From contig JBAYGS010000003.1 in NCBI GenBank assembly GCA_041666545.1, positions 41,086-105,085 of the forward strand: a stretch of DNA of 64,000 nt, given 5' to 3'. A model generated the notes under the pieces. That model saw only the letters and a list, made by a program, of their open reading frames with translations. It searched no databases and was not told the origin of the DNA. Of this stretch, positions 852-54,190 are shown one piece after another. Within the stretch, counting starts at the first letter, position 1; each line of letters starts with the position of its first letter. This DNA comes from Minisyncoccota bacterium (GTDB lineage Bacteria; Patescibacteriota; Minisyncoccia; Phycocordibacterales; JBAYGS01). The position numbers and the translations under genes are program-made.

Positions 852-3008
852 ATGAAATTTGTAGATTGGTATCAACAATCTATGAAGAAAAAAGAATTCT
901 CCACGATAGTCGGCGGCAAGACTTTGACCGCAACCTTCAGCGACTTGGCCGAAAGGGCTAACGGTTCAGTGATGTTGCGCTACGGCAACACAGTTGTGTT
1001 GGCGACCGCAGTAATGTCAAAAGAATCTCGCGATGGCGAAGATTTCTTACCGCTCACAGTTGATTATGAGGAAAAGTTTTACGCTTCCGGTCAAATTCTC
1101 GGCTCGCGATTTGTGAGAAGGGAAGGTAAGCCGTCAGACGAAGCAATCCTCTCCGGCCGAATTGTCGACCGCACCATCCGCCCGCTTTTCGATCACTGGA
1201 TTCGAAACGAAATCCAATCAATCATCACGGTGCTCTCGATTGAAGAGGACGACCCGGATATGCTCGGCATCTGGGGCGCCTCGCTCGCGATTGGAACCTC
1301 GCATATCCCTTGGAACGGGCCAGTTTCCGCAATTCGCTTGGCCAAGATGAAAGGCGATGACAACTTCATCATCAATCCCAGCTACAAAATCCGCGAAGAC
1401 AAAAATCTGGAATTTGAACTTGTGGCCTGTGGCAAAGACGGCAAAATCAACATGATCGAGCTCGGTGGCAACGAAGTCCCGGAAGAAACCGTCGCCAAAG
1501 CTTTGCAATTTGCTTCCGAAGAAATCGAAAAGGTCCAGGATTTTCAAAATAAAATCATCAAAGAAATCGGCAAAAAGAAATTGATAATTCCGAAGCCGGA
1601 AACACCGAAAGAACTGACCCCGCTTTTCAAAGAAATCGTGCTCGCTAAACTCGAGAAGCAAGTTTTTACTGGTGTGCCGGGTGACACTTCGATTGAGGCA
1701 CTCAAGAAAGAGTGGCTCACGGCGGTTGAAGAGAAATTTCCTGGCACCAATATCAACCTACCGATCGATCTCTTTGAAGATGCCACCAATGAAATCGTCC
1801 ACACCGAAGCGATTGAGAATAATCGCCGAGCTGACGGCAGGAAGATTGATGAAATCCGCCCACTCTACGCGCAAGCCGGCGGAATTTCGCCAATTCTTCA
1901 CGGTTCAGGAATTTTCTATCGAGGTCAAACCCACATTCTGACCGCGCTCACCCTGGGTGGTCCTTCCGACACCCAAATTATTGACGGAATTGAAGAAAAA
2001 AATGTACAAAAGCGTTTCATGCACCATTACAACTTCCCACCATTCTCAACCGGTGAAACCGGCCGAGCCAGTAGCACCAACCGCCGAATGATCGGCCACG
2101 GCGCTCTCGCGGAAAAAGCCCTCGTGCCAATAATTCCTGACCAAGAGCAATTTCCTTATACCATCCGTTTGGTCTCGGAAGCTCTTTCTTCCAATGGTTC
2201 GACTTCAATGGGTTCGGTCTGTGGCTCGACTCTGGCTTTGATGGACGGCGGTGTACCAATCAAGAAACCGGTGGCCGGCATCGCTTCCGGTTTAATGCTT
2301 AGCGAGGACGGTAAGAAATATAAAGTGCTCACTGACATTCAGGGACCGGAAGACCACTATGGCGATATGGATTTTAAAGTCGCGGGCACACTGGAAGGCA
2401 TCACCGCTATGCAGATGGATGTGAAAGTCGGCGGTATTCCGCTTTCCATTTTTCCGGAAGCTCTCGAGAAAGCTCGGCTAGCCCGAATTCAAATTTTGAA
2501 AGTCATCACCGAGGCCATCCTGGAACCGCGACCGGAAATCTGCGCCAAGGCGCCAAAAATCCTAATCATCAGAATCAAACCGGACCAGATTGGCGGCGTC
2601 ATCGGCTCCGGTGGCAAGACCATCAATGACATCAAGGAAAAAACTGGAGTGGAGGCCATCGACATCGAGGATGACGGCAAAATTTTCATTACCGGTAAAA
2701 ATGGTTCAGCTGAAAAAGCGAAAAAGATTATTGAGGAAATGACACACGAATACAAACGCGGTGAAAAATTCCAAGGTGAAGTGGTAAAAATCTTGGACTT
2801 TGGCGCTTTTGTGAGAATCGGCTACAACGCCGAAGGTTTGGTACACATTTCTGAAATCGCGCCCTTCCGAGTCGACCGGGTCACCGCCGTCCTGAAAGAA
2901 GGCGACAAAGTACCGGTCGTCGTTAAAGAAATCGATGAGCGAGGCCGAATCAGTCTCTCAATCAAACAAGCCGACCCGAACTTCGTGAAACAGCCGGGGA
3001 AAGTTTAG
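852..3008 (+). CDS. pnp: polynucleotide phosphorylase (PNPase)
   Basis: 718 aa. N-terminus GKTLTATFSDLAERANGSVMLRYGNTVVLATAV is classic PNPase. Two RNase PH-like regions, then KH (GSGGKTINDIKEKTGV) and S1 (GEVVKILDFGAFVRI) at the C-terminus. Confidence 0.93.
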   Translation: MKFVDWYQQSMKKKEFSTIVGGKTLTATFSDLAERANGSVMLRYGNTVVLATAVMSKESRDGEDFLPLTVDYEEKFYASGQILGSRFVRREGKPSDEAILSGRIVDRTIRPLFDHWIRNEIQSIITVLSIEEDDPDMLGIWGASLAIGTSHIPWNGPVSAIRLAKMKGDDNFIINPSYKIREDKNLEFELVACGKDGKINMIELGGNEVPEETVAKALQFASEEIEKVQDFQNKIIKEIGKKKLIIPKPETPKELTPLFKEIVLAKLEKQVFTGVPGDTSIEALKKEWLTAVEEKFPGTNINLPIDLFEDATNEIVHTEAIENNRRADGRKIDEIRPLYAQAGGISPILHGSGIFYRGQTHILTALTLGGPSDTQIIDGIEEKNVQKRFMHHYNFPPFSTGETGRASSTNRRMIGHGALAEKALVPIIPDQEQFPYTIRLVSEALSSNGSTSMGSVCGSTLALMDGGVPIKKPVAGIASGLMLSEDGKKYKVLTDIQGPEDHYGDMDFKVAGTLEGITAMQMDVKVGGIPLSIFPEALEKARLARIQILKVITEAILEPRPEICAKAPKILIIRIKPDQIGGVIGSGGKTINDIKEKTGVEAIDIEDDGKIFITGKNGSAEKAKKIIEEMTHEYKRGEKFQGEVVKILDFGAFVRIGYNAEGLVHISEIAPFRVDRVTAVLKEGDKVPVVVKEIDERGRISLSIKQADPNFVKQPGKV

Positions 3009-3040
3009 AGGTTTAGAAGTTTGGAAGTTGAAAAGTTTAA

Positions 3041-8601: not shown

Positions 8602-10551
8602 ATGTCTTCCCACTTAGAAAGTCTAAATCCTCGCCAACACGAGGCCGCTACAACCCTTGAAGGACCTTTACTAATCATCGCCGGAGCCGGAGCCGGTAAA
8701 ACCAAAACTATCGCCCATCGGATTCTTCACCTCATTAAATCTGGCGTAGCACCTCATCAAATTCTCGCCATCACCTTCACCAACAAGGCCGCCAAAGAAA
8801 TGCGGGAAAGGGTTATGGGTCTAATCAGAGGGGATTCCGAGCTCAATCTACCAATTGCCTTTTCTGAACAGCCTTTTGTGAGCACTTTTCATGCGCTCGG
8901 TGTCCACATCATCAGAGAAAATTCTTTGAAACTTGGCCTGACCAGAAATTTTACAATTTTTGACCGCAACGACTCGCTTCGCGCCGTCAAAGAAGCTGTA
9001 AAGTCTGCCGGTTTGGATCCAAAAGATTACGAACCGAAGAAATTTCTGAATGCGATCTCTTGGCAAAAAGGCGAGGGGAGGACCTTGAGCGATTTTGAGG
9101 CGGAGAGTTCGAAAAATTACTTCTCCGAGCTCGTCGCCTCCGTCTGGGCAAATTATGAAAAGGTTTTGAAAGCTGAAAAATCGCTCGATTTCGACGACTT
9201 GCTTTTAAAAGCTGCCAAATTATTGAAAACCGACGCCGAAGTTAGGGGACATTACCGAGATATCTGGAAGTATATCCACATTGATGAATATCAGGACACC
9301 AACAAGGTCCAGTACCAGATTGCCAAATTGTTAATCGGTGAAACTAATAATATTTGTGTCGTCGGCGACGAAGACCAGTTAATTTATGCTTGGCGTGGCG
9401 CCAACATTTCCCACATTTTGCATTTCGAAAAAGATTTCCCAAATACCAAAGTGGTCCTGCTGGAACAAAATTATCGCTCGACCAAAAATATCTTAAGTGT
9501 CGCCAACCAAATCATCTCTAAGAACAAAATCCGGACTGCCAAAAAACTTTTTACCGACAAAAGCGATGGGGATAAAATTGGCCTTTATGCCTCGATTAAC
9601 GAAACTGATGAAGCTCAGTTTGTTGCCCACAAAGCTCTGGAATTAATCCAAAGTGGCGCCTCGCCTAGAGAAATCGCTGTGCTCTACCGAGCCAATTTTC
9701 AGTCGCGAGTTTTGGAAGAAGCTTTTCTGCTACACAACATTCCTTACCAAGTTTTAGGCACGCGTTTTTTTGAACGAAAAGAAGTGAAGGATGTCCTGTC
9801 ATTTATTCGTGGTGCTTTAAATCCCGACAGCTCGGCCGATTTGAAAAGGATTATCAATGTTCCACCAAGGGGCATCGGCAAGGTCACTTTGATAAAAATT
9901 TTGGCCAAGCAGGAGGCAACTTTGCCACCGGCAACCCGGGCCAAGGTTGAAGATTTTAGAGAGCACTTGGCCAACATCAAAGAGGCAGTCAGCTTAAAAG
10001 TTCCTTCTGAGTTGGTGAAATTTGTTTTGCAAGAAATCGGTTTGGAAAAAGAGTTGCTAAACGGTACAGAGGAGGACCACGAGCGTCTAGAAAACTTACG
10101 AGAACTCGCCACTCTGGCAACTCGTTATGATCATTTACCACTTCCTACCGGCACAGAAAAACTTTTGGAAGACGCGGCGCTTGCGACCGACCAGGACGAG
10201 CTGGTCAAAGATGAAAAAGCTGTTAAGCTGATGACAGTCCACGCTTCCAAGGGTTTGGAATTTGATAGCGTTTTCATCACCGGCTTGGAAGACAATCTCT
10301 TCCCACACCGCCAAATCGGCGAAGCCCGTATTTCGGCGGGGGAGGAAGAAGAGGAACGCCGCCTGTTTTATGTGGCCGTCACCAGAGCGCGCAAAAAACT
10401 ATTCCTTTCCTATTCCAGCAGTCGAACCATTTTCGGTTCGTCGCAAATGAACGCACCGTCAGAATTTATCACCGATATCGATGATATTTTCCTCGAAGCC
10501 GAGGAGCGTAATTGGGATTTGCCGGCCGAGAAGATAATTTATTTTGATTAA
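8602..10551 (+). CDS. UvrD/PcrA-family ATP-dependent DNA helicase
   Basis: 649 aa. LNPRQHEAATTLEGPLLIIAGAGAGKTKTIAHRI (Walker A) and DEYQDTN (motif II), with the UvrD C-terminal domain. Confidence 0.9.
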   Translation: MSSHLESLNPRQHEAATTLEGPLLIIAGAGAGKTKTIAHRILHLIKSGVAPHQILAITFTNKAAKEMRERVMGLIRGDSELNLPIAFSEQPFVSTFHALGVHIIRENSLKLGLTRNFTIFDRNDSLRAVKEAVKSAGLDPKDYEPKKFLNAISWQKGEGRTLSDFEAESSKNYFSELVASVWANYEKVLKAEKSLDFDDLLLKAAKLLKTDAEVRGHYRDIWKYIHIDEYQDTNKVQYQIAKLLIGETNNICVVGDEDQLIYAWRGANISHILHFEKDFPNTKVVLLEQNYRSTKNILSVANQIISKNKIRTAKKLFTDKSDGDKIGLYASINETDEAQFVAHKALELIQSGASPREIAVLYRANFQSRVLEEAFLLHNIPYQVLGTRFFERKEVKDVLSFIRGALNPDSSADLKRIINVPPRGIGKVTLIKILAKQEATLPPATRAKVEDFREHLANIKEAVSLKVPSELVKFVLQEIGLEKELLNGTEEDHERLENLRELATLATRYDHLPLPTGTEKLLEDAALATDQDELVKDEKAVKLMTVHASKGLEFDSVFITGLEDNLFPHRQIGEARISAGEEEEERRLFYVAVTRARKKLFLSYSSSRTIFGSSQMNAPSEFITDIDDIFLEAEERNWDLPAEKIIYFD

Positions 10552-16517: not shown

Positions 16518-17276
16518 ATGAGATACGACTCAACAAAACTAAACGAAATTTATAAAACCCTGCCAAAAGATGTTCAGGAAGCGATGTTTTCGGTTGACTC
16601 CGCCAACGCTGTTCAAAAAATCGGCAAAGATAACGGCTTGATGATTGATAAAATGGGTACCCTTGGTCAAATGGTTGGTCTGGTAATGCTCGGTGTCATT
16701 AAATCCGTGAGTTTCGCCAAAGAAATCGAACACGAACTCGGAGTCAACTCAACAACCGCTCAAAAGATTGTCGCTCAAGTAAACGAGCAAATCTTTTTGC
16801 CAATCCGAGAATCGCTCCGGAAAATTCAAGAAAAAGAAATCAAGCCGGAATGGGACAGTGAATCAACCACCACCTTAAACCACGAAGATGTGTTGAAGGG
16901 GATTGAGGAACCCGGAGCAGTCACCGCCGATAAGCAAACCTTACTTAGCGAAAGCAAACCGGCGACCGCACCGGCGCCAGTCAACTTGCCGACCGGACCG
17001 ATGGGGAATGCACCGGCAGAAATCAACGCTTGGCCAAAATCACCTGAAATAACGAAAGCCCCACTCGAAACATCGGCAAAACTAAAAGTGGAAAGCATGG
17101 GAGTAAATATCCTTGAGGATAAAATGAGTAAAGTTGTCCATATCGCTAAAGAAACTAAAATCATTGAGCCAGAACCTTCAAAATTGCCGCCAGTTGCTCC
17201 GAAACCACCAACTCCACCCTCAATGCTGAAGAAGCAATATGGGACAGTTGATCCGTATAGAGAACCGGTAAGCTAG
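16518..17276 (+). CDS. hypothetical protein with a Pro-rich C-terminus
   Basis: Complete ORF inside the cluster. No recognisable motifs. Confidence 0.35.
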   Translation: MRYDSTKLNEIYKTLPKDVQEAMFSVDSANAVQKIGKDNGLMIDKMGTLGQMVGLVMLGVIKSVSFAKEIEHELGVNSTTAQKIVAQVNEQIFLPIRESLRKIQEKEIKPEWDSESTTTLNHEDVLKGIEEPGAVTADKQTLLSESKPATAPAPVNLPTGPMGNAPAEINAWPKSPEITKAPLETSAKLKVESMGVNILEDKMSKVVHIAKETKIIEPEPSKLPPVAPKPPTPPSMLKKQYGTVDPYREPVS

Positions 17277-17306
17277 TTTGTAGTGAGTAGTGGGTAGTGA
17301 GTAGTT
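17277..17306. repeat. family-A repeat (gtagtgagtagtgggtagtgagtag), left inverted copy flanking the four-helix-bundle gene
   Basis: Its exact reverse complement (aactactcactacccactactcactac) occurs at 17664-17690. Confidence 0.8.
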
Positions 17307-17309
17307 AAA

Positions 17310-17666
17310 ATGCAAGTCAAAACTTACAAAGATCTGATTGTTTGGCAAAAGTCTATGGAGCTGGCCACTTTGATTTATAATTTAACCAAAGAGTTCCCAA
17401 GAGACGAGGTCTATGGCTTGTCTTCACAAATCAAACGGGCCGTAATTGCAATCCCATCGAATATCGCCGAAGGACAACGCAGGAAGGGGACGAAAGAATT
17501 TATTCAATTTCTACACATCTCTTATGGGTCTGGAGCAGAACTGGAAACTCAGCTGGAATTAGCCAAAAGACTATCTTTCGGTAATTTGAATAGCTATACT
17601 GTCATAGAAAACCTTTTAAACGAAATCATGCGAATGTTAAATAAGTTAATTTACTCACTTCACTAA
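17310..17666 (+). CDS. four-helix-bundle protein (23S rRNA intervening-sequence protein family; Avd-like fold)
   Basis: 118 aa. DLIVWQKSMELATLIYNLTKEFPRDEVYGLSSQIKRAVIAIPSNIAEGQRRKGTKEFIQFLHISYGSGAELETQLELAKRL matches the TIGR02436 / PF05635 signature closely. Confidence 0.8.
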   Translation: MQVKTYKDLIVWQKSMELATLIYNLTKEFPRDEVYGLSSQIKRAVIAIPSNIAEGQRRKGTKEFIQFLHISYGSGAELETQLELAKRLSFGNLNSYTVIENLLNEIMRMLNKLIYSLH

Positions 17667-17698
17667 CTACTCACTACCCACTACTCACTACCAACTCC
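17652..17698. repeat. family-A repeat, right inverted copy (overlaps the stop of the four-helix-bundle gene)
   Basis: ctcacttcactaactactcactacccactactcactaccaactcc. Confidence 0.8.
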
Positions 17699-18998: not shown

Positions 18999-19358
18999 AT
19001 GATTCATAAGTTTGATTTAGAAAAGCGAACGACAGATTTTGCAAAAGAAACCATCCTACTTTGCAGGAAATTACCTAAAGACCCGATAAACAACCGCCTA
19101 ATGGGACAAATTGTCGGTTCTTCCGGCTCTATTGGAGCTAATTACCGTGAAGCTAATGACTCACTGGGTAAGAGAGACTTTATCCACCGTTTGAAAATAT
19201 CCCGCAAGGAAATCAAGGAAACACTCCATTGGTTTGATTTGATTGAGACGGCCAATCCTAATTTCAAACCAGTGATACTGCCCCTCGCTAAGGAAGCGAC
19301 TGAACTGCGAAATATCTTTTCGGCGATTATTAAGAAATGCGAGGACAAGCAAGTATAG
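18999..19358 (+). CDS. four-helix-bundle protein (23S rRNA IVS protein family), second copy
   Basis: 119 aa. ...IVGSSGSIGANYREANDSLGKRDFIHRLKISRKEIKETLHWFDL matches the same family as 17310-17666 and is divergent from it. Confidence 0.75.
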   Translation: MIHKFDLEKRTTDFAKETILLCRKLPKDPINNRLMGQIVGSSGSIGANYREANDSLGKRDFIHRLKISRKEIKETLHWFDLIETANPNFKPVILPLAKEATELRNIFSAIIKKCEDKQV

Positions 19359-34684: not shown

Positions 34685-34767
34685 AGGAGTTTGGATGTTT
34701 TGAGGTTAGGAAGTTGGGAAGTTAAACTTCTGAACTTCTAAACTTCAAGCGAAGCGAAACTAAAAAC

Positions 34768-40944: not shown

Positions 40945-41835
40945 ATGAAAAATCTCATGTTCGTTGTAATGTTGCTCGTGTCAGCTCTGGCTCACGGCGC
41001 CGAAGTGAATCAGGAAATCGTCATGAAGCCGGTGGAACCGAAAGCGGTTCACCAAACTCCGGCGAGGCCGAAAATCGTGCCGCAAAAAGAGCTCACGGTT
41101 AAGGAGCTCTTCGAGCGTGAGCAAGTTCGGCGCCAAGAAAAAGAAATGGCTGCGAAGATTGCGACCGGAGAGCAAATCATTCCGGCAGCCGGACTCACAT
41201 CCACGCAGTCTGGAACGGTGCCAGTTGTTCAGGCTCCGACGCGAGTCGGCAGCAGATCAGCCCACCGGTATCCCAATCAGCGCTCATTCGGAGGGCATCG
41301 GAGCTTCGGTGGTAGCCGCCCGTTTGGAGGCAATCAAGCTCCGAATGGGTACATCACCACTGCTCCGGCGGCGACGGTGCCGGCCAATGTGCAGGTCTAT
41401 GTCGGGTCACCGGCCGTATCGCAACAGCCCGCTCCTGCCAAAAGCGGGTTCTGGCGAAAAGTTGGCCAAGCCACCGGGTTTGGTCCACTCTTCACCGAGT
41501 ACCGGCCTCAAATCGCCGAGTATGCCGCGACCCACGGAGCGGTCGGCGCCTCCCAGTTCAGTGGGGTGCCTTACCAGACTACGGAGTCGGTGAGCGCATC
41601 CACTTGGGACAACTCCTACCAACCTTACGGTTGGGGCTCGAGGCCAAACACTTCGAAAGGCTCCTACTACGGCTACAGCCGAGTGAGTCAGCCGACCTAC
41701 GGGGCTTATGTCCCGGACGGCGCGGCTCCGACCTCGTATGTCCGGTTCGAGTCGGTAAGCCAAAGGCTCGGACCGCAGGACTACGGAGTCCCGGGTGGGA
41801 GCACGAAGGTGTTCCGGCTCTTCGGTCGGGACTAG
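40945..41835 (+). CDS. secreted low-complexity protein (high-GC gene)
   Basis: Signal peptide MFVVMLLVSALAHGA, then a Gly/Ser/Tyr/Pro-rich sequence with repeats (RSFGGHRSFGGSRPFGG). Confidence 0.35.
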   Translation: MKNLMFVVMLLVSALAHGAEVNQEIVMKPVEPKAVHQTPARPKIVPQKELTVKELFEREQVRRQEKEMAAKIATGEQIIPAAGLTSTQSGTVPVVQAPTRVGSRSAHRYPNQRSFGGHRSFGGSRPFGGNQAPNGYITTAPAATVPANVQVYVGSPAVSQQPAPAKSGFWRKVGQATGFGPLFTEYRPQIAEYAATHGAVGASQFSGVPYQTTESVSASTWDNSYQPYGWGSRPNTSKGSYYGYSRVSQPTYGAYVPDGAAPTSYVRFESVSQRLGPQDYGVPGGSTKVFRLFGRD

Positions 41836-41907
41836 GCCACTCAGTTCTTCACAAAGCGCGTCGCAAGATGCGCTTTTCTTTTTGTTCAATTTAGCTACAA
41901 TCACTGG

Positions 41908-42375
41908 ATGAGAATTATAAGCAAAAGTTTGGCCGAAACCGAAAAATTCGCCCAAGATTTTTTAAATAAAATTAAACCAAAAGAAAACGACGCGACGGTC
42001 GTCGGTCTACATGGTGATTTAGGATCTGGAAAAACCGCTTTTGTTAAACTGATTGCGAAAAATTTAGGCATTACTGAAAACATCACCAGCCCCACTTTTG
42101 TCATTATGAAAAACTACCCACTTATTCTTCAAAACTTCCCAACTTCAAAACTTCCCAACTTCAAAACTCTCACACATATTGACGCCTACCGTCTCGACCG
42201 TGGCAGTGATCTTGCCAAGCTTGGTTTTGCTGATTTACTAAATAATCAAGAAAATCTGATTCTGCTTGAGTGGCCGGAAAAAGTGGCCGATGTTCTACCG
42301 AAAGACTATGTAAGGATTGATTTTAAATTTATTGACGAAAACACCAGAGAAATTTCTACTGATTTTTGGCTTTAA
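41908..42375 (+). CDS. tsaE: tRNA threonylcarbamoyladenosine biosynthesis protein TsaE (YjeE ATPase)
   Basis: 155 aa. VGLHGDLGSGKTAFVK (Walker A) ...TSPTF...HIDAYRL core, with an in-frame 16 aa insertion encoded by a family-E repeat. Confidence 0.8.
   Translation: MRIISKSLAETEKFAQDFLNKIKPKENDATVVGLHGDLGSGKTAFVKLIAKNLGITENITSPTFVIMKNYPLILQNFPTSKLPNFKTLTHIDAYRLDRGSDLAKLGFADLLNNQENLILLEWPEKVADVLPKDYVRIDFKFIDENTREISTDFWL
42127..42168. repeat. family-E repeat (aaaacttcccaacttc x2) inside the tsaE coding sequence, in frame
   Basis: Encodes LILQNFPTSKLPNFKT between conserved TsaE segments. Confidence 0.75.
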
Positions 42376-44391: not shown

Positions 44392-46842
44392 GTGAATCCT
44401 AAATCTACCCCAAAAAGACTGGTTTTACTCGACGCTCACGCGATACTGCACCGCGCTTACCATGCCTTGCCGGAATTTTCTTCAAGCAAAGGGGAACCGA
44501 CCGGGGCACTTTACGGGCTTTCAGCGATGCTCATCAAGATTATTGCTGATTTGAAGCCCGACTATTTGATTGCCGCTTACGATTTACCCAAGCCGACCTA
44601 TCGCCACGAAGCTTTCAAAGACTACAAAGCCGGCCGAGCCAAGGCCGACCCGGAACTGGTGTCGCAAATGAGGCGCTCGCGTGACGTTTTCACCGCTTTT
44701 AATATTCCAATTTATGACAAGGAAGGTTTTGAAGCGGATGACATAATCGGCACAATTGTCGAAAAGCTAACAGCTAAAAGCCAAAAGCTAAAAGCTGATG
44801 TAGACATAGTGATTGCCTCGGGCGACATGGACACCTTGCAGTTGGTTTCGGACGACAAGGTTCGAGTTTATACTCTGAAAAAAGGTATTAAAGACACGAT
44901 TATCTATAACGAAAAAGGTGTTATTGAACGGTTTGGTTTTGGGCCGGAACTTTTGCCGGATTACAAAGGTTTGCGCGGGGACCCGTCGGATAATATTCCG
45001 GGGATAAAAGGAATTGGTGAGAAGACCGCCACGATTTTGATTACCAATTTCGGTTCGGTTGAACAGATTTATAAACAAATTAAAAAAGACGAAAAGCCAT
45101 TACTTAAGGCAGGGATTACGCCCCGAATTGTTGAGCTTCTGAAAACCAACGAAGAAGAGGCGCAATTTTCCAAAATGCTTGGCACAATTCGTAGAGACGC
45201 GCCGATTGACTTCAGATTGCCGGAGCAGACCTGGAAGGAAAGTTTGGACGTTACAAAAACCGAGGAATTGTTCAGCGAACTGGAATTTCGAGCGCTCGGG
45301 ACACGCTTTAAGGAAACTTTAAATAAAGAAGCGCCAAATTCAAAAACCCAGGTTCCAAATAAATCTCAAATCATAAAGTCAGAAAATTCAGAAACTACAC
45401 ACTACTCACTACCCACTACTCACTTACCATCCGACTTCTTCGAAACCTCGCTTGCCCTCTGGGTCGTCAATTCTAACCTGACCAATCCGACCATGGAGGA
45501 TGTTTTGAATTTTGGCCGGACGGATGATTATGAAAAAGCCAAGAAGTTGATTTTTGAAACACTCAGGCAAAGAAAAAGCGAGAGAGTGTATGAGGAAATC
45601 GAGAAACCTTTGATTCCTGTCGTAAAAGCGATGGATGAGCGGGGAGTGAAGATTGATACGGAACTTCTCAAGAAACTTTCGGTTGAATATCATAAGAAAC
45701 TGGATGGCTTGGAAAAAGAAATTCACCAATTGGCCGGTGAGGAATTTAATGTGGCTTCCCCGAAACAATTGGGAGAAATTTTGTTCGTTAAGATGGGCTT
45801 GGCTGGCAAAAGGCAAAAAAAGACTGCAACTGGGGCGTTTTCTACCAAGGAAAGCGAACTTGAAAAATTGCGAGAGTCGCATCCGATTATAAGTTTGATT
45901 TTGGAGTATCGCGAATTTGCCAAATTGCTTTCCACATATATCGACACGATTCCGACTCTGGTGGACAAGAATAACCGGCTACACACGCATTTTTTGCAAG
46001 CCGGCGCCGCGACTGGGCGAATGGCCTCGGAAAATCCGGGTTTGCAAAATATTCCCAACAAAACTGAATTGGGCCGAGCTATTAGACAAGCTTTCGTTGC
46101 CGAAAAAGGTTTTAAACTTTTGGCGCTCGATTATTCGCAGATTGAACTCCGGATTGCCGCGTTTTTGTCGGGCGATAAAAAGTTGATTGAGATTTTTAAG
46201 AACGGCGAAGATGTTCATACAGCGGTGGCGGCGGAAGTTTTCGGTGTGCCGGGCGACAAAGTCCACAAAGATATGCGTCGCAAAGCCAAAGTGATTAATT
46301 TCGGCGTGATGTACGGGATGGGGGTGAATGCGCTTCGGACTAATCTGGGCGCCGGCACAACTCGTGAGGAAGCGCAGAAATTTTACAACGACTATTTTGA
46401 AAAGTTTTCAGGTTTGGCCAAATATTTAGATAAGGTGAAAGCTGAAACCGCGAGACAAGGTTACACCGAAACTTTTTTTGGCCGAAGGCGATATTTTGAA
46501 GGAATTAATTCTAAATTACCGTTTATTCGTGCCGCTGCTGAACGAATGGCGATTAACGCGCCGATTCAAGGCACCGAGGCCGACATTGTGAAGCTCGCGA
46601 TGATTAAAATTTGCGAATACATCAAATCGGAAAAACTTGAGGAACAAGTTTTTCCGATTCTCCAAGTCCATGACGAATTGGTTTATGAAGTTCGCGAGGA
46701 TTTAATTTCCAAAATCGCTCCAGCTATCAAAAAAATTATGGAATCAGTTATTCCACCCGAAAAAGTTGCCGGCATCGTCTGTGTCGCCGAAGCGTCCGAG
46801 GGGGAGAGGTGGGGGGAGATGAAGAAGGTAGAAGGTATATAG
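44392..46842 (+). CDS. polA: DNA polymerase I (5'-3' exonuclease + polymerase domains)
   Basis: 816 aa. N-terminal 5'-3' exo (LVLLDAHAILHRAYHALP; GIGEKTA). C-terminal pol motifs (LALDYSQIELRIAA; YGMGVNAL; QVHDELVYEV). The linker carries in-frame repeat-derived insertions. Confidence 0.93.
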   Translation: MNPKSTPKRLVLLDAHAILHRAYHALPEFSSSKGEPTGALYGLSAMLIKIIADLKPDYLIAAYDLPKPTYRHEAFKDYKAGRAKADPELVSQMRRSRDVFTAFNIPIYDKEGFEADDIIGTIVEKLTAKSQKLKADVDIVIASGDMDTLQLVSDDKVRVYTLKKGIKDTIIYNEKGVIERFGFGPELLPDYKGLRGDPSDNIPGIKGIGEKTATILITNFGSVEQIYKQIKKDEKPLLKAGITPRIVELLKTNEEEAQFSKMLGTIRRDAPIDFRLPEQTWKESLDVTKTEELFSELEFRALGTRFKETLNKEAPNSKTQVPNKSQIIKSENSETTHYSLPTTHLPSDFFETSLALWVVNSNLTNPTMEDVLNFGRTDDYEKAKKLIFETLRQRKSERVYEEIEKPLIPVVKAMDERGVKIDTELLKKLSVEYHKKLDGLEKEIHQLAGEEFNVASPKQLGEILFVKMGLAGKRQKKTATGAFSTKESELEKLRESHPIISLILEYREFAKLLSTYIDTIPTLVDKNNRLHTHFLQAGAATGRMASENPGLQNIPNKTELGRAIRQAFVAEKGFKLLALDYSQIELRIAAFLSGDKKLIEIFKNGEDVHTAVAAEVFGVPGDKVHKDMRRKAKVINFGVMYGMGVNALRTNLGAGTTREEAQKFYNDYFEKFSGLAKYLDKVKAETARQGYTETFFGRRRYFEGINSKLPFIRAAAERMAINAPIQGTEADIVKLAMIKICEYIKSEKLEEQVFPILQVHDELVYEVREDLISKIAPAIKKIMESVIPPEKVAGIVCVAEASEGERWGEMKKVEGI
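45395..45428. repeat. family-A repeat inside the polA coding sequence, in frame
   Basis: actacacactactcactacccactactcacttacc encodes TTHYSLPTTHLP in the exo-pol linker. Confidence 0.75.
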
Positions 46843-51146: not shown

Positions 51147-51578
51147 CTAAAGCGGCAAATCAAAGGCGAGAAAACCCGGGCCGCTAACTAAAAGTGAAAG
51201 CAAGATTACGATGAGTAGTAAGTAAACCCGCTTATTGTAAACAATTGCACCGGCCCATCTCGGAGTTTTGGATTTCAATGCTTGAATTAGCAAAATCAAA
51301 ATCAAAACTAAGGCAACTGGTTGGGTGAATAATCCGATAACCAAAAAAATTCCGCCCAAAACCTCTAAGAGGGCAATTATTCTGGCCAGAATTGATTTTG
51401 GGGCCGAGAGACTCCTGTAAAGCTGGTAACCGGAATAAATAATAATCAAACCGGCCACGATCCGAAGAAGCGTCGGTCCGGCGAGTCCGTAGGTCAATAA
51501 ATTTGGAAAAATACTTAACATGGCATTATGATAGCATAATGAATAATCAATAACCAAGAAACAATAACCAAGAAACAA
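51147..51578 (-). CDS. DoxX family membrane protein (likely start at internal Met, MLSIFPN)
   Basis: 4 TM helices. LLRIVAGLIIIYSGYQL...GGIFLVIGLFTQ is DoxX-like. Confidence 0.55.
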   Translation of the reverse strand: MFLGYCFLVIDYSLCYHNAMLSIFPNLLTYGLAGPTLLRIVAGLIIIYSGYQLYRSLSAPKSILARIIALLEVLGGIFLVIGLFTQPVALVLILILLIQALKSKTPRWAGAIVYNKRVYLLLIVILLSLLVSGPGFLAFDLPL

Positions 51579-51655
51579 TAACCAAGGTAAGTAGACGCTA
51601 CCGAGTATTGTTAATCGGAATTTGTTCGGTTATTGTTTCTTGGTCATTGGTGATT
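51546..51655. repeat. family-B palindromic unit (3x caataaccaagaaa, then ttattgtttcttggtcattg)
   Basis: Long imperfect inverted repeat in the divergent intergenic region between the DoxX and SpoU genes. Confidence 0.7.
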
Positions 51656-53212: not shown

Positions 53213-54190
53213 CTAAGAGTAAAGAATTTGATGCTTGGGGCAGAAGTGAGCGCTGCGACCGCCGAGTTTGAGTTTGGTGATGATACCGGAGCATCTTTTC
53301 TTGCCACATTTTCCGCTAGTCTTTTGATAAGCCTGATGGTGATACTGGAAATTGCCCTTGGTGCCGAGTGGAGTGCGATAATCCGAAGTTGAATCACCGC
53401 CAAATTGGATGCCTTTTCTCAAAATCAGCTTCATTGAGTCGAACATCTTTTTTAGCTTTAGTGCAGGAATTTTAGAGACAATCGAGAGGGGATGGATGCC
53501 AGAGTCCCAAAGAATTTCGTCAGAATAAATATTGCCAATGCCGGATACAACTTTTGGGTCCATGAGAACCTGTTTGATTCTGCTTTTGGGCCAAGTGAAT
53601 AGACGGCCTTGGAATTTTTTGAAATCAAAACTTTTTTCGAGGGGTTCTGGGCCAATGTCGGCCAAATGCCCAGTTTCGTGAGCGGTTTTGGTTGGTAGGA
53701 GAGTGACTTTAGCGAACTTTCTCACATCGGAGAGAGCCAAATGTTTGCCATTTGTAAACGAAATAACTAAATGAACGAATCGGCTGTAGGGGTCTTTAAG
53801 CGCCTCGGGCGCAATCGCGATCCAAGGGGAAGCTGTTAGCTGTTGGCCTTTAGCTTTTAGTTTTTCGGATTTACTTGAAACTTTTAACTTGGAACTTGGA
53901 ACTCGCCTGTACGTTCCGTACAGGAGTTGGCCGGTCATTTTCATGTGAACCAGAATTGTCTGACCGTTTGAGAGGTTTATCAAAACATTTTTACCGCGCC
54001 TTTCGACATTTTTAATTTTCGCGCCAATTACGCTGACCCGAAATTTTCGGAAAAATTTCGGGTCCTTAATATTATCTTTTCCCTCATGAATTTTTCCGCC
54101 ATAATCGGTCCAAGCATCAGAAATAGTAAGGCCGGAAATCAGCCGGTCTAGCATTGTTGCGGTAGTGTGGACTTCGGGAAGTTCGGGCAT
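53213..54190 (-). CDS. mutM: formamidopyrimidine-DNA glycosylase (Fpg/MutM/Nei family)
   Basis: 325 aa. N-terminal MPELPEV (catalytic Pro2/Glu3), H2TH region, and a C-terminal zinc finger CGKKRCSGIITKLKLGGRSAHFCPKHQ. Carries an in-frame repeat-derived insertion. Confidence 0.85.
   Translation of the reverse strand: MPELPEVHTTATMLDRLISGLTISDAWTDYGGKIHEGKDNIKDPKFFRKFRVSVIGAKIKNVERRGKNVLINLSNGQTILVHMKMTGQLLYGTYRRVPSSKLKVSSKSEKLKAKGQQLTASPWIAIAPEALKDPYSRFVHLVISFTNGKHLALSDVRKFAKVTLLPTKTAHETGHLADIGPEPLEKSFDFKKFQGRLFTWPKSRIKQVLMDPKVVSGIGNIYSDEILWDSGIHPLSIVSKIPALKLKKMFDSMKLILRKGIQFGGDSTSDYRTPLGTKGNFQYHHQAYQKTSGKCGKKRCSGIITKLKLGGRSAHFCPKHQILYS
53848..53906. repeat. family-E-like repeat inside the fpg coding sequence (minus strand), in frame
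   Basis: The minus-strand sequence encodes VPSSKLKVSSKSEKLKAKGQ, inserted in Fpg. Confidence 0.7.

Follow-up and report, generated by a model that had tools for sequence, protein, structure and literature searches.

Probable turnover of non-triplet tandem repeats in a beta-hairpin of the t6A protein TsaE in a Patescibacteria genome

The gene tsaE (41908..42375, + strand, 155 amino acids) of a Minisyncoccota bacterium (Patescibacteriota) contains an in-frame tandem repeat array of 42 nt (42127..42168, + strand), which codes for residues 74-87 of this t6A ATPase. The gene is located on a stretch of 64,000 nt of contig JBAYGS010000003.1 (positions 41,086 to 105,085 of the forward strand), which is referred to here as the window and on which all window coordinates are counted. 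The array probably results from the turnover of non-triplet repeats, which occur throughout the genome, at the permissive tip of a beta-hairpin in TsaE, with a near-neutral effect on the protein. It would then be a lineage-specific short tandem repeat belonging to the genome's own AACTTCNN family, placed at the tip of the beta3-beta4 hairpin. In this Paceibacterota (Patescibacteria) group, heptamer and octamer repeats would arise genome-wide and persist in intergenic spacers and in a few permissive protein loops.

Tandem Repeats Finder (TRF) assigned a period of 16 nt with 2.6 copies and 100% matches to the span 42127..42168, and the score of 84 was the highest in the window. The same span was also reported with period 8 and 5.2 copies, as the 16-nt unit consists of the alternating octamers CTTCAAAA and CTTCCCAA. 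The 16-mer AAAACTTCCCAACTTC occurs exactly at 42131 and 42147 in head-to-tail arrangement; if up to two mismatches are permitted, four matches are present in the window (0.09 expected). The array starts exactly with codon 74 and ends in codon 87 (LQNFPTSKLPNFKT), between the motifs S61PTF and H90IDAYRL. Both TRF and the open reading frame (ORF) of 155 amino acids confirmed the original prediction that a repeat lies within tsaE in frame and leaves the frame open. The array is devoid of G and free of stop codons in all three frames of the + strand. Its reverse strand has TGA, and coding is therefore possible in the present orientation only. The array has the properties of an in-frame coding tandem-repeat insertion: more than two copies are joined head to tail, the frame stays open, and the nearest orthologs lack it.

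The protein was identified as TsaE by Pfam, by sequence matches to the PDB, by an AlphaFold2 model and by Foldseek. The match to PF02367 (110.7 bits at a cut-off of 26.6; E 5.9e-32) covers profile positions 2-128 of 128, and the sequence also matches solved TsaE, YdiB and YjeE proteins (PDB 6N9A, 6S84, 5NP9 and 1HTW). The AlphaFold2 model, for which 32 homologs served as input, reached a mean predicted local distance difference test (pLDDT) value of 90.9, and Foldseek ranks 1-9 were TsaE, YdiB or YjeE (TM-score 0.72-0.78). The Walker A motif G36-T43 (GxxGxGKT), S61PTF, H90IDAYRL and E121W122 with the switch tryptophan are all kept; the roles of the Walker A, SPT(F/Y), HxDxYR and EW motifs have been described (PMC6009658). 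Furthermore, the window protein has every column that is invariant among the 32 homologs. In comparison to the solved TsaE, YjeE and YdiB proteins of the t6A TsaBDE complex, it shows the same fold and the same motifs. The spacing between SPTF and HxDxYR is different: it amounts to 13-14 residues in TsaE of T. maritima and B. subtilis and usually to 17 in Patescibacteria, in contrast to 25 in the window.

The nearest orthologs (P0002-P0005, 65-72% identity) were located by exact-protein look-up of database matches. In protein and codon alignments, all four are eight codons shorter at the array. The codons without counterpart are I73-S80 (42124..42147, + strand), their placement within the repeat being arbitrary. 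The net gain in comparison to these orthologs is thus 24 nt, i.e. three octamers or 8 amino acids, and this takes the place of the insertion of 16 amino acids which had been claimed from the sequence. Alignment gaps relative to the solved TsaE structures comprise 9-12 residues. Among the loci of these orthologs, L006 is syntenic with the window (RuvB, ATPase of a type II secretion system, two hypothetical genes, TsaE, two hypothetical genes, PolA). Among reference genomes, the best relatives reach no more than 55% identity. A metagenome-contig collection that was also searched does not include this organism: the exact 22-mer of the upstream flank was unmatched there, and the protein search gave relatives with at most 59% identity.

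The loops of the four nearest orthologs comprise 17 residues and are themselves coded by repeats, in these cases with period 7 (TRF scores 45-60). The unit is ACTACCC in P0002 (3.7 copies), ACTATAA in P0003 and P0004 (4.4-4.7 copies) and AGTTACA in P0005 (5.3 copies). A DNA period of 7 nt cannot stem from selection on the peptide, because a peptide repeat would give a period of 21 nt (or 24 nt in the case of 8-nt units). These arrays are repeats at the level of DNA, and their units are translated in each of the three frames. One unit of the ACTATAA arrays reads ACTATCA, which is the change required for avoiding an in-frame TAA. A nucleotide-level conservation of the tsaE arrays was considered as well and rejected, as the identity over 29 nt between L006 and L007 is unexceptional and P-loop regions give runs of 29-33 nt; a run of 47 nt in polA is the sole one to stand out. 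The view that an intergenic-type repeat had become a peptide insertion thus holds for the extra peptide, which is repeat-coded and absent from the nearest orthologs; it does not hold for the loop as such, which is already repeat-coded in sister lineages without a change in length.

Upstream of the array, the window has retained ACTACCCACT (42113..42122, + strand), a remnant of 1.4 units of an ACTACCC heptamer array that matches the beginning of the P0002 array exactly. In addition, AAACTTC, which forms the core of the octamer, is present in the native 3' flank of the P0002 loop (AAA CTT CTC). The retained remnant and the AAACTTC in the flank of P0002 thus argue for a replacement and not for an insertion into a naive loop, and the event is best described as the replacement of a heptamer array of ~16 nt by an octamer array of ~40 nt. 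An ancestor shared with P0002 would have possessed the ACTACCC array, which was then mostly replaced in the window lineage. The A-rich codons of the flanks (AAA AAC TAY upstream; AAA CTY CTC downstream) resemble repeat units and might seed slippage or template switching. For the octamer array, slippage could have started locally at the native AAACTTC (Lys-Leu codons), or the sequence could have been copied ectopically from a different AACTTCNN array; a local origin and a copy of an intergenic array are equally plausible. Because 8 nt cannot be divided by three, the frame is preserved only if the net change amounts to three units (24 nt, 8 amino acids), and an array once acquired would therefore be locked in and hard to lose.

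Four records that were assembled separately encode the exact TsaE protein (SRR6484324; ERZ27249449, a 178-kb contig; JGI 3300037810; SRR18595301). The DNA of tsaE is 100% identical in all of them, and one record, L003, represents another strain with 99.64% identity over 3.8 kb. The array is not an assembly artefact. As the records were retrieved by exact protein identity, this set is unable to reveal variants. A homology search of the protein database yielded no other TsaE allele above 72% identity, the 90% cluster had one member, and neither truncated nor near-identical TsaE variants were present in this database. Likewise, no difference in copy number of the array occurred among the four assemblies and their two strains, which are 0.36% apart.

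These results bear on two further explanations. That the segment is an ordinary lineage loop shaped by point substitutions, or an artefact of assembly, with the repeat being coincidental, can practically be dismissed. Distant relatives do carry unrelated loop segments of many lengths, but 42 nt with 100% periodicity and a score of 84 face an expectation of 0.1 period-16 arrays in shuffles of the window, a period of 7 or 8 nt is incompatible with peptide-repeat selection, and the four independent records agree. The statistics of the periodicity and the agreement of the assemblies thus refute this explanation. Unrelated segments in relatives had been named beforehand as the sign of a mere lineage loop; such segments exist in distant relatives, but ~40% of them are themselves visibly coded by repeats or palindromes. 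It is also extremely unlikely that the array serves as a phase-variation switch, in which TsaE would be turned off and on by frame shifts whenever a unit of 8 or 16 nt is added or lost. The non-triplet unit and the position in the middle of the ORF would suit a switch, and TsaE is dispensable in some reduced bacteria (PMC6009658). However, the tract is short (2.6 copies of 16 nt or 5.2 imperfect octamers), its length is equal in the four assemblies with their two strains, the next allele in the protein database is 72% identical, and the ortholog arrays are all in frame with a loop of 17 amino acids.

In the AlphaFold2 model, residues 67-71 and 87-92 form strands with the segment 72-86 in between. 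A block of ten residues (71-80) has a pLDDT of 69, compared to 90-97 for most other residues. The expectation of a surface loop is therefore supported with regard to the position between two strands of a hairpin, where, however, the prediction is of low confidence. The published contacts of TsaE in the TsaBDE complex comprise the SPTF motif, helix alpha3 and the beta5-beta6 connection, and the hairpin tip is not listed among them; Tyr82 in the HxDxYR region stacks on TsaD (PMC6009658). Since beta3 departs from the interface at SPTF and beta4 comes back at HxDxYR, the tip should be located at the far end. From this topology and the published contact list, the tip of the beta3-beta4 hairpin most probably points away from the interface with ATP, TsaD and TsaB. 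The hairpin strands exhibit a pseudo-symmetry of seven residues (K-x-Y-x-L ... [FY]-K-x-L), which the 21-nt super-period of a heptamer array can satisfy; this helps to explain why heptamer arrays are tolerated at unchanged length. The hairpin would be permissive because of this pseudo-symmetry, the seed-like codons and the orientation of the tip away from the interface. For TsaE, this probably means a longer and flexible hairpin at the surface, which affects its function little.

The word family of the array also occurs in intergenic arrays, as had been noticed from the sequence. With at most one mismatch, AACTTCNNAACTTC gave 12 matches in the window (0.65 expected), which are clustered at 3008-3037 (- strand), 34702-34746 (both strands) and 42133-42162. 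The first cluster belongs to an intergenic octamer array of the AACTTCNN family with ~4.9 units (3001..3039, - strand), which overlaps the stop codon of a PNPase-like gene (852..3008). The second consists of two inverted octamer arrays of the same family between ruvC and yebC (34700..34748), which form a hairpin with arms of 24 nt. The exact 14-nt string AACTTCCCAACTTC is common to the tsaE array and positions 34710-34723, where it has the same sense as the ruvC mRNA leader. The AACTTCNN family was absent from all 144 loci examined from relatives.

A further explanation is a small mobile element with heptamer or octamer terminal inverted repeats, for which the arrays would be footprints or half-sites and the tsaE loop a target. 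The two arrays at 34700-34748 are 1 nt apart and resemble an empty element, the tsaE loop of L045 has inverted arrays (CGAAATC ... GATTTCG), and identical multi-unit strings occur in unrelated genes. Moreover, a gene for a 23S-rRNA-intervening-sequence (IVS) protein of 118 amino acids (17310..17666; PF05635, E 6e-39; weak bAvd-like match) is bracketed by a 33-nt inverted repeat (17275-17307 and 17664-17696; 97% complementary) composed of GTAGTGA/ACTACYC arrays. Its arms abut the start and stop codons of the gene, as in the processing stem of an rRNA IVS or in a small cassette. Nevertheless, such an element is highly unlikely as the source of the tsaE array. Beyond this one, no further gene for a 23S-rRNA-IVS protein was detected in 1.34 Mb of related DNA, neither a transposase nor a target-site duplication was seen, and the hairpin stem arms in tsaE loops of other lineages are not repeated elsewhere in their own loci of 2-12 kb. 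The window array itself is single, direct and without partner, the best inverted match reaching 71% at a distance of 518 nt.

Repeat-coded segments are not restricted to TsaE. The gene polA (44392..46842) contains two in-frame heptamer arrays, one of AAAAGCT units (44762..44796, + strand, residues ~124-135) and one of ACTACYC units (45394..45424, + strand, residues ~334-345). The relatives L006 (7868-7900 and 8477-8507) and L009 (3821-3853 and 4385-4410) have repeat-coded sites at the same conserved positions of polA, with different units: ACTATAA twice in L006, AAACTAT and CGAAATC in L009. In fpg (53213..54190, - strand), two adjacent in-frame heptamer arrays of the families AAAAGCT/AACAGCT and ACTTGRA (53831-53865 and 53873-53903) code for SSKLKVSSKSEKLKAKGQQLTAS. 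The N-terminal domain of this formamidopyrimidine-DNA glycosylase comprises 162 residues, 45 more than the 117 positions of the Pfam model. Repeat-coded segments therefore occupy fixed permissive positions of several core enzymes, and their content turns over.

Some of these sites share whole strings. The 15-mer CTACCCACTACTCAC of the P0002 tsaE loop occurs exactly in the window at 17283 (- strand), at 17674 (+ strand) and, within the ACTACYC array of polA, at 45409 (+ strand, residues ~339-343). A 25-mer with the stop-avoiding TCA unit, AAACTATCAACTATAAACTATAAAC, is common to tsaE and polA: L006 has it in the tsaE loop and in polA, L007/L008 in the tsaE loop and L009 in polA (polA residues ~125-135); at the position orthologous to 44762..44796, both polA genes thus carry an ACTATAA-family string that is also found in the L006 tsaE loop. 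Whole multi-unit strings common to separate sites point to ectopic copying by template switching or gene conversion, besides local slippage. Common strings may also have been seeded convergently where the native codons are alike (AAA AAC TAY; GAA AAA CTA).

Heptamer arrays (TATACTA, ACTACYC and TACTTTC) furthermore end at most ~20 nt, and mostly 3-6 nt, from predicted start codons. Starts with such upstream arrays are located at 8602, 17700, 34684 (- strand), 35298 (- strand), 48659, 53159 (- strand) and 56757 (- strand). On the mRNA strand, these leaders contain little G; they lack a Shine-Dalgarno sequence, and many of them terminate in CTCCT, TTCCC or TACCT. The TATACT-type arrays also resemble reiterated -10 boxes. 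A 14-nt family, CAATAACCAAGAAA, forms an array at 51542-51586 and occurs upstream of 4816; its inverse, GGTTATTGTTTCTTGGTTATTGAT, immediately precedes the starts at 18999 and 19427.

A possible, though rather doubtful, extension is that Paceibacterota carry tandem-repeat cassettes with units of 7 and 8 nt that spread by copy-and-paste. These would be exchanged by ectopic template switching or gene conversion between intergenic leaders and docking loops, namely the TsaE hairpin, the two PolA sites and Fpg. The same string would then appear in unrelated proteins and in three frames, and the sites would be old with their content replaced wholesale. A function at the RNA level, e.g. as unstructured G-poor platforms for Shine-Dalgarno-independent initiation or for an RNA-binding protein, might possibly drive the maintenance of such cassettes inside genes.

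The proposed turnover in a permissive hairpin can be placed in a wider frame. In the window, 64 TRF rows were obtained, mostly with periods 7 and 14. In 0.94 Mb of Patescibacteria loci (score at least 40), arrays of period 7 (38 observed, 0.1 expected), period 14 (31 and 5.1) and period 8 (7 and 0.1) exceeded a second-order Markov null. Across ~140 tsaE loci of Patescibacteria and on a crude gene map, arrays of period 7, 8, 14, 16 or 21 reached a density of 0.48 per kb in intergenic DNA and 0.064 per kb in coding DNA, and 2.41 per kb in the TsaE segment between SPTF and HxDxYR (12 arrays in 4.98 kb from 84 loci). Five of these 12 loop arrays stem from one clade, yet with four different units. 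Independent heptamer arrays are present in the tsaE loops of L010 (AATCTAC), L030 (AATTACG), L042 (GAAATCC and TTCAAAA) and L112 (ACTACTC again), as well as L043, L055, L057, L085, L088, L092 and L101. Other lineages possess perfect palindromes in this loop with stems of up to 20 bp. Among 67 distinct loops of more than 17 amino acids, 42% showed a perfect stem of at least 7 bp or a perfect tandem run of at least 12 nt, in comparison to 12% of random segments, and the tandem runs had period 7 without exception. A universal heptamer motif was not found, as 61 canonical units occurred among 95 arrays. In the 120 closest proteins the loop comprises 17 to 50 residues, and among the relatives overall 10 to 50. 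The TsaE loop is a phylum-wide hot spot.

With respect to loop lengths, clusters at 10 and 17 residues were observed, the shorter type occurring in L074, L077, L081, L086, L131 and L147 and the longer in most loci. The difference of seven residues corresponds to three heptamers, and the 17-residue loops of L096, L104 and L109 resemble decayed heptamer arrays. The usual 17-residue loop may thus descend from an old expansion by three units. In the homologs P0026, P0031, P0076-P0078, P0089, P0091 and P0094, a loop of 38 residues is conserved as protein (e.g. LLNDSQKLSENPLRLTRTNRSEEIPKAFGRLI); in that lineage an insertion has apparently turned into a stable structured element.

Several points weigh against a nearly neutral turnover. 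The repeat density of the loop is five times that of intergenic DNA, which pure neutral tolerance would not predict; the non-independence of lineages and the trapping of non-triplet arrays may explain a part of this excess. Four Paceibacterota lineages share a perfect 11-bp hairpin in the tsaE loop (AACTTGGAnnn-loop-nnnTCCAAGTT; L024 1056-1112, L031 6190-6246, L034 6178-6234, L025 6193-6258). The pairing of this hairpin is preserved (97.7% of cells), with compensatory changes in three pairs, at the cost of the peptide, which varies between GSEAS, GSSTS, GHPMS and GGPTS. In polA, a block of 47 nt including the first-site array is identical in L006 and L009, compared to 53% identity of the third-codon positions elsewhere. 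Both the polA block and the hairpin hint at a nucleotide-level constraint or at ongoing conversion. Finally, how far the hairpin tip lies from the interface was deduced from topology and the contact list of the paper, and the constancy of the array length refers to assembled sequences.

The repeat or hairpin at this site might accordingly be a functional nucleic-acid element, e.g. an unstructured C/A/U-rich target of an RNA-binding protein, a position of RNA processing or pausing, or a site acting as DNA; the peptide would then be a by-product that the loop tolerates. This is rather unlikely, although the loop density, the frequency of stems and tandem runs in expanded loops, the compensatory changes of the 11-bp hairpin and the polA block all agree with it. 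Furthermore, the tsaE array is G-free in the sense strand like the arrays which end 3-6 nt before starts, among them the ruvC leader with the same 14-mer, and heptamer repeats before start codons of Beggiatoaceae were proposed as sites of a post-transcriptional regulator (PMC4679880). On the other hand, units and structures are unrelated among lineages and the many canonical units leave no common motif, and the nearest orthologs do without a AACTTCNN-type array. The region of the tsaE array was predicted to be unpaired (fold z = -1.13). A search with Rfam 15 over the window gave matches to five tRNAs only, none of them near tsaE. Over the array, the sole promoter or terminator consensus was one promoter-like site on the minus strand (42132-42103); in the window, promoter-like counts equalled the shuffle expectation and terminator-like counts were within ~1.5 standard deviations of it. 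Perfect palindromes can also be maintained by template-switch correction without selection, which counts against a function of the nucleic acid.

Upstream of tsaE, a GC-rich ORF (40945..41835; 57% GC in 41001-42000, ~45% elsewhere) carries peptide repeats of the SFGG type and had no match in a Pfam search. Its called length varies among assemblies of the same organism (292, 296 and 316 amino acids).

In full-text literature searches, no connection of simple sequence or tandem repeats to Patescibacteria or the Candidate Phyla Radiation came up. The genome-wide arrays resemble the STRR-type repeats of cyanobacteria and the TAACTGA heptamers of Beggiatoaceae, Cyanobacteria and Bacteroidetes (MacGregor 2015, PMC4679880) in their mostly 7-nt head-to-tail units, the enrichment in intergenic DNA, the position of many arrays a few nt from starts, the lineage-specific spread and indels in unit steps. 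Heptamers are the commonest long simple repeats according to Mrazek et al. 2007, as cited in PMC4679880. The tsaE array is atypical of that type due to its period of 8/16 and its intragenic position. In addition, the present clade has many unit families instead of one, and its arrays occur in frame in TsaE, PolA and Fpg at orthologous positions with units differing between lineages; in the TAACTGA study (PMC4679880), sets within ORFs were rare and were not analysed as coding insertions.

The tandem repeats of Borgs (Schoelmerich et al. 2023, PMC9879509) are likewise genome-wide, A-rich, perfect and subject to fast turnover, occur in intergenic DNA and in ORFs, originated independently in related genomes and add flexible or disordered segments to proteins with the frame intact. 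In Borgs, the unit lengths of in-ORF repeats are all divisible by three (PMC9879509). In contrast, the units here have 8/16 nt in the window tsaE and 7 nt in the orthologs, one unit is read in three frames, only three-unit steps are viable, and the tsaE array yields no perfect amino-acid repeat with a triplet-compatible unit. The arrays also reside on a bacterial chromosome and not on an archaeal extrachromosomal element, are short (2.6 to ~5 units) and include core enzymes among their targets, whereas Borg targets are mostly extracellular proteins.

Rickettsia palindromic elements, reportedly dispersed sequences of 100-150 bp described by Ogata and co-workers in 2000, are said to lie in frame in protein genes at surface positions, including those of essential proteins. 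They would share with the tsaE array the tolerance of intergenic-type repetitive DNA in frame and the character of a passenger peptide. The window insert differs from them, being a direct tandem array of 42 nt without palindrome, and it thus does not represent a dispersed palindromic element; palindromic inserts do occur in TsaE loops of other Patescibacteria, unrepeated in their own loci. With contingency loci of Haemophilus, Neisseria and Mycoplasma, the array has in common a non-triplet unit within an ORF, so that a change by one unit shifts the frame. Unlike these loci, the tract is short, resides in a housekeeping t6A ATPase gene instead of a surface or restriction-modification gene, and is without length polymorphism in the assemblies; a frame-switching repeat number was not observed among the four records.

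For TsaE alone the result is modest. The tip of the beta3-beta4 hairpin is a very permissive site of the protein in Patescibacteria (10 to 50 residues), which is useful for annotation, alignment and engineering, and gene callers and assemblers should be used with caution on such genomes. The clade-wide pattern is of greater interest: in an uncultivated phylum with reduced genomes, housekeeping proteins possess segments coded by non-triplet repeats at conserved positions, the units of which are replaced between sister lineages. If this holds true, these organisms would provide a natural system for studying how repeat-generating mutation makes protein sequence, why the 7-nt period dominates in bacteria and whether repeats have a role at the RNA level in organisms which largely lack Shine-Dalgarno sequences.

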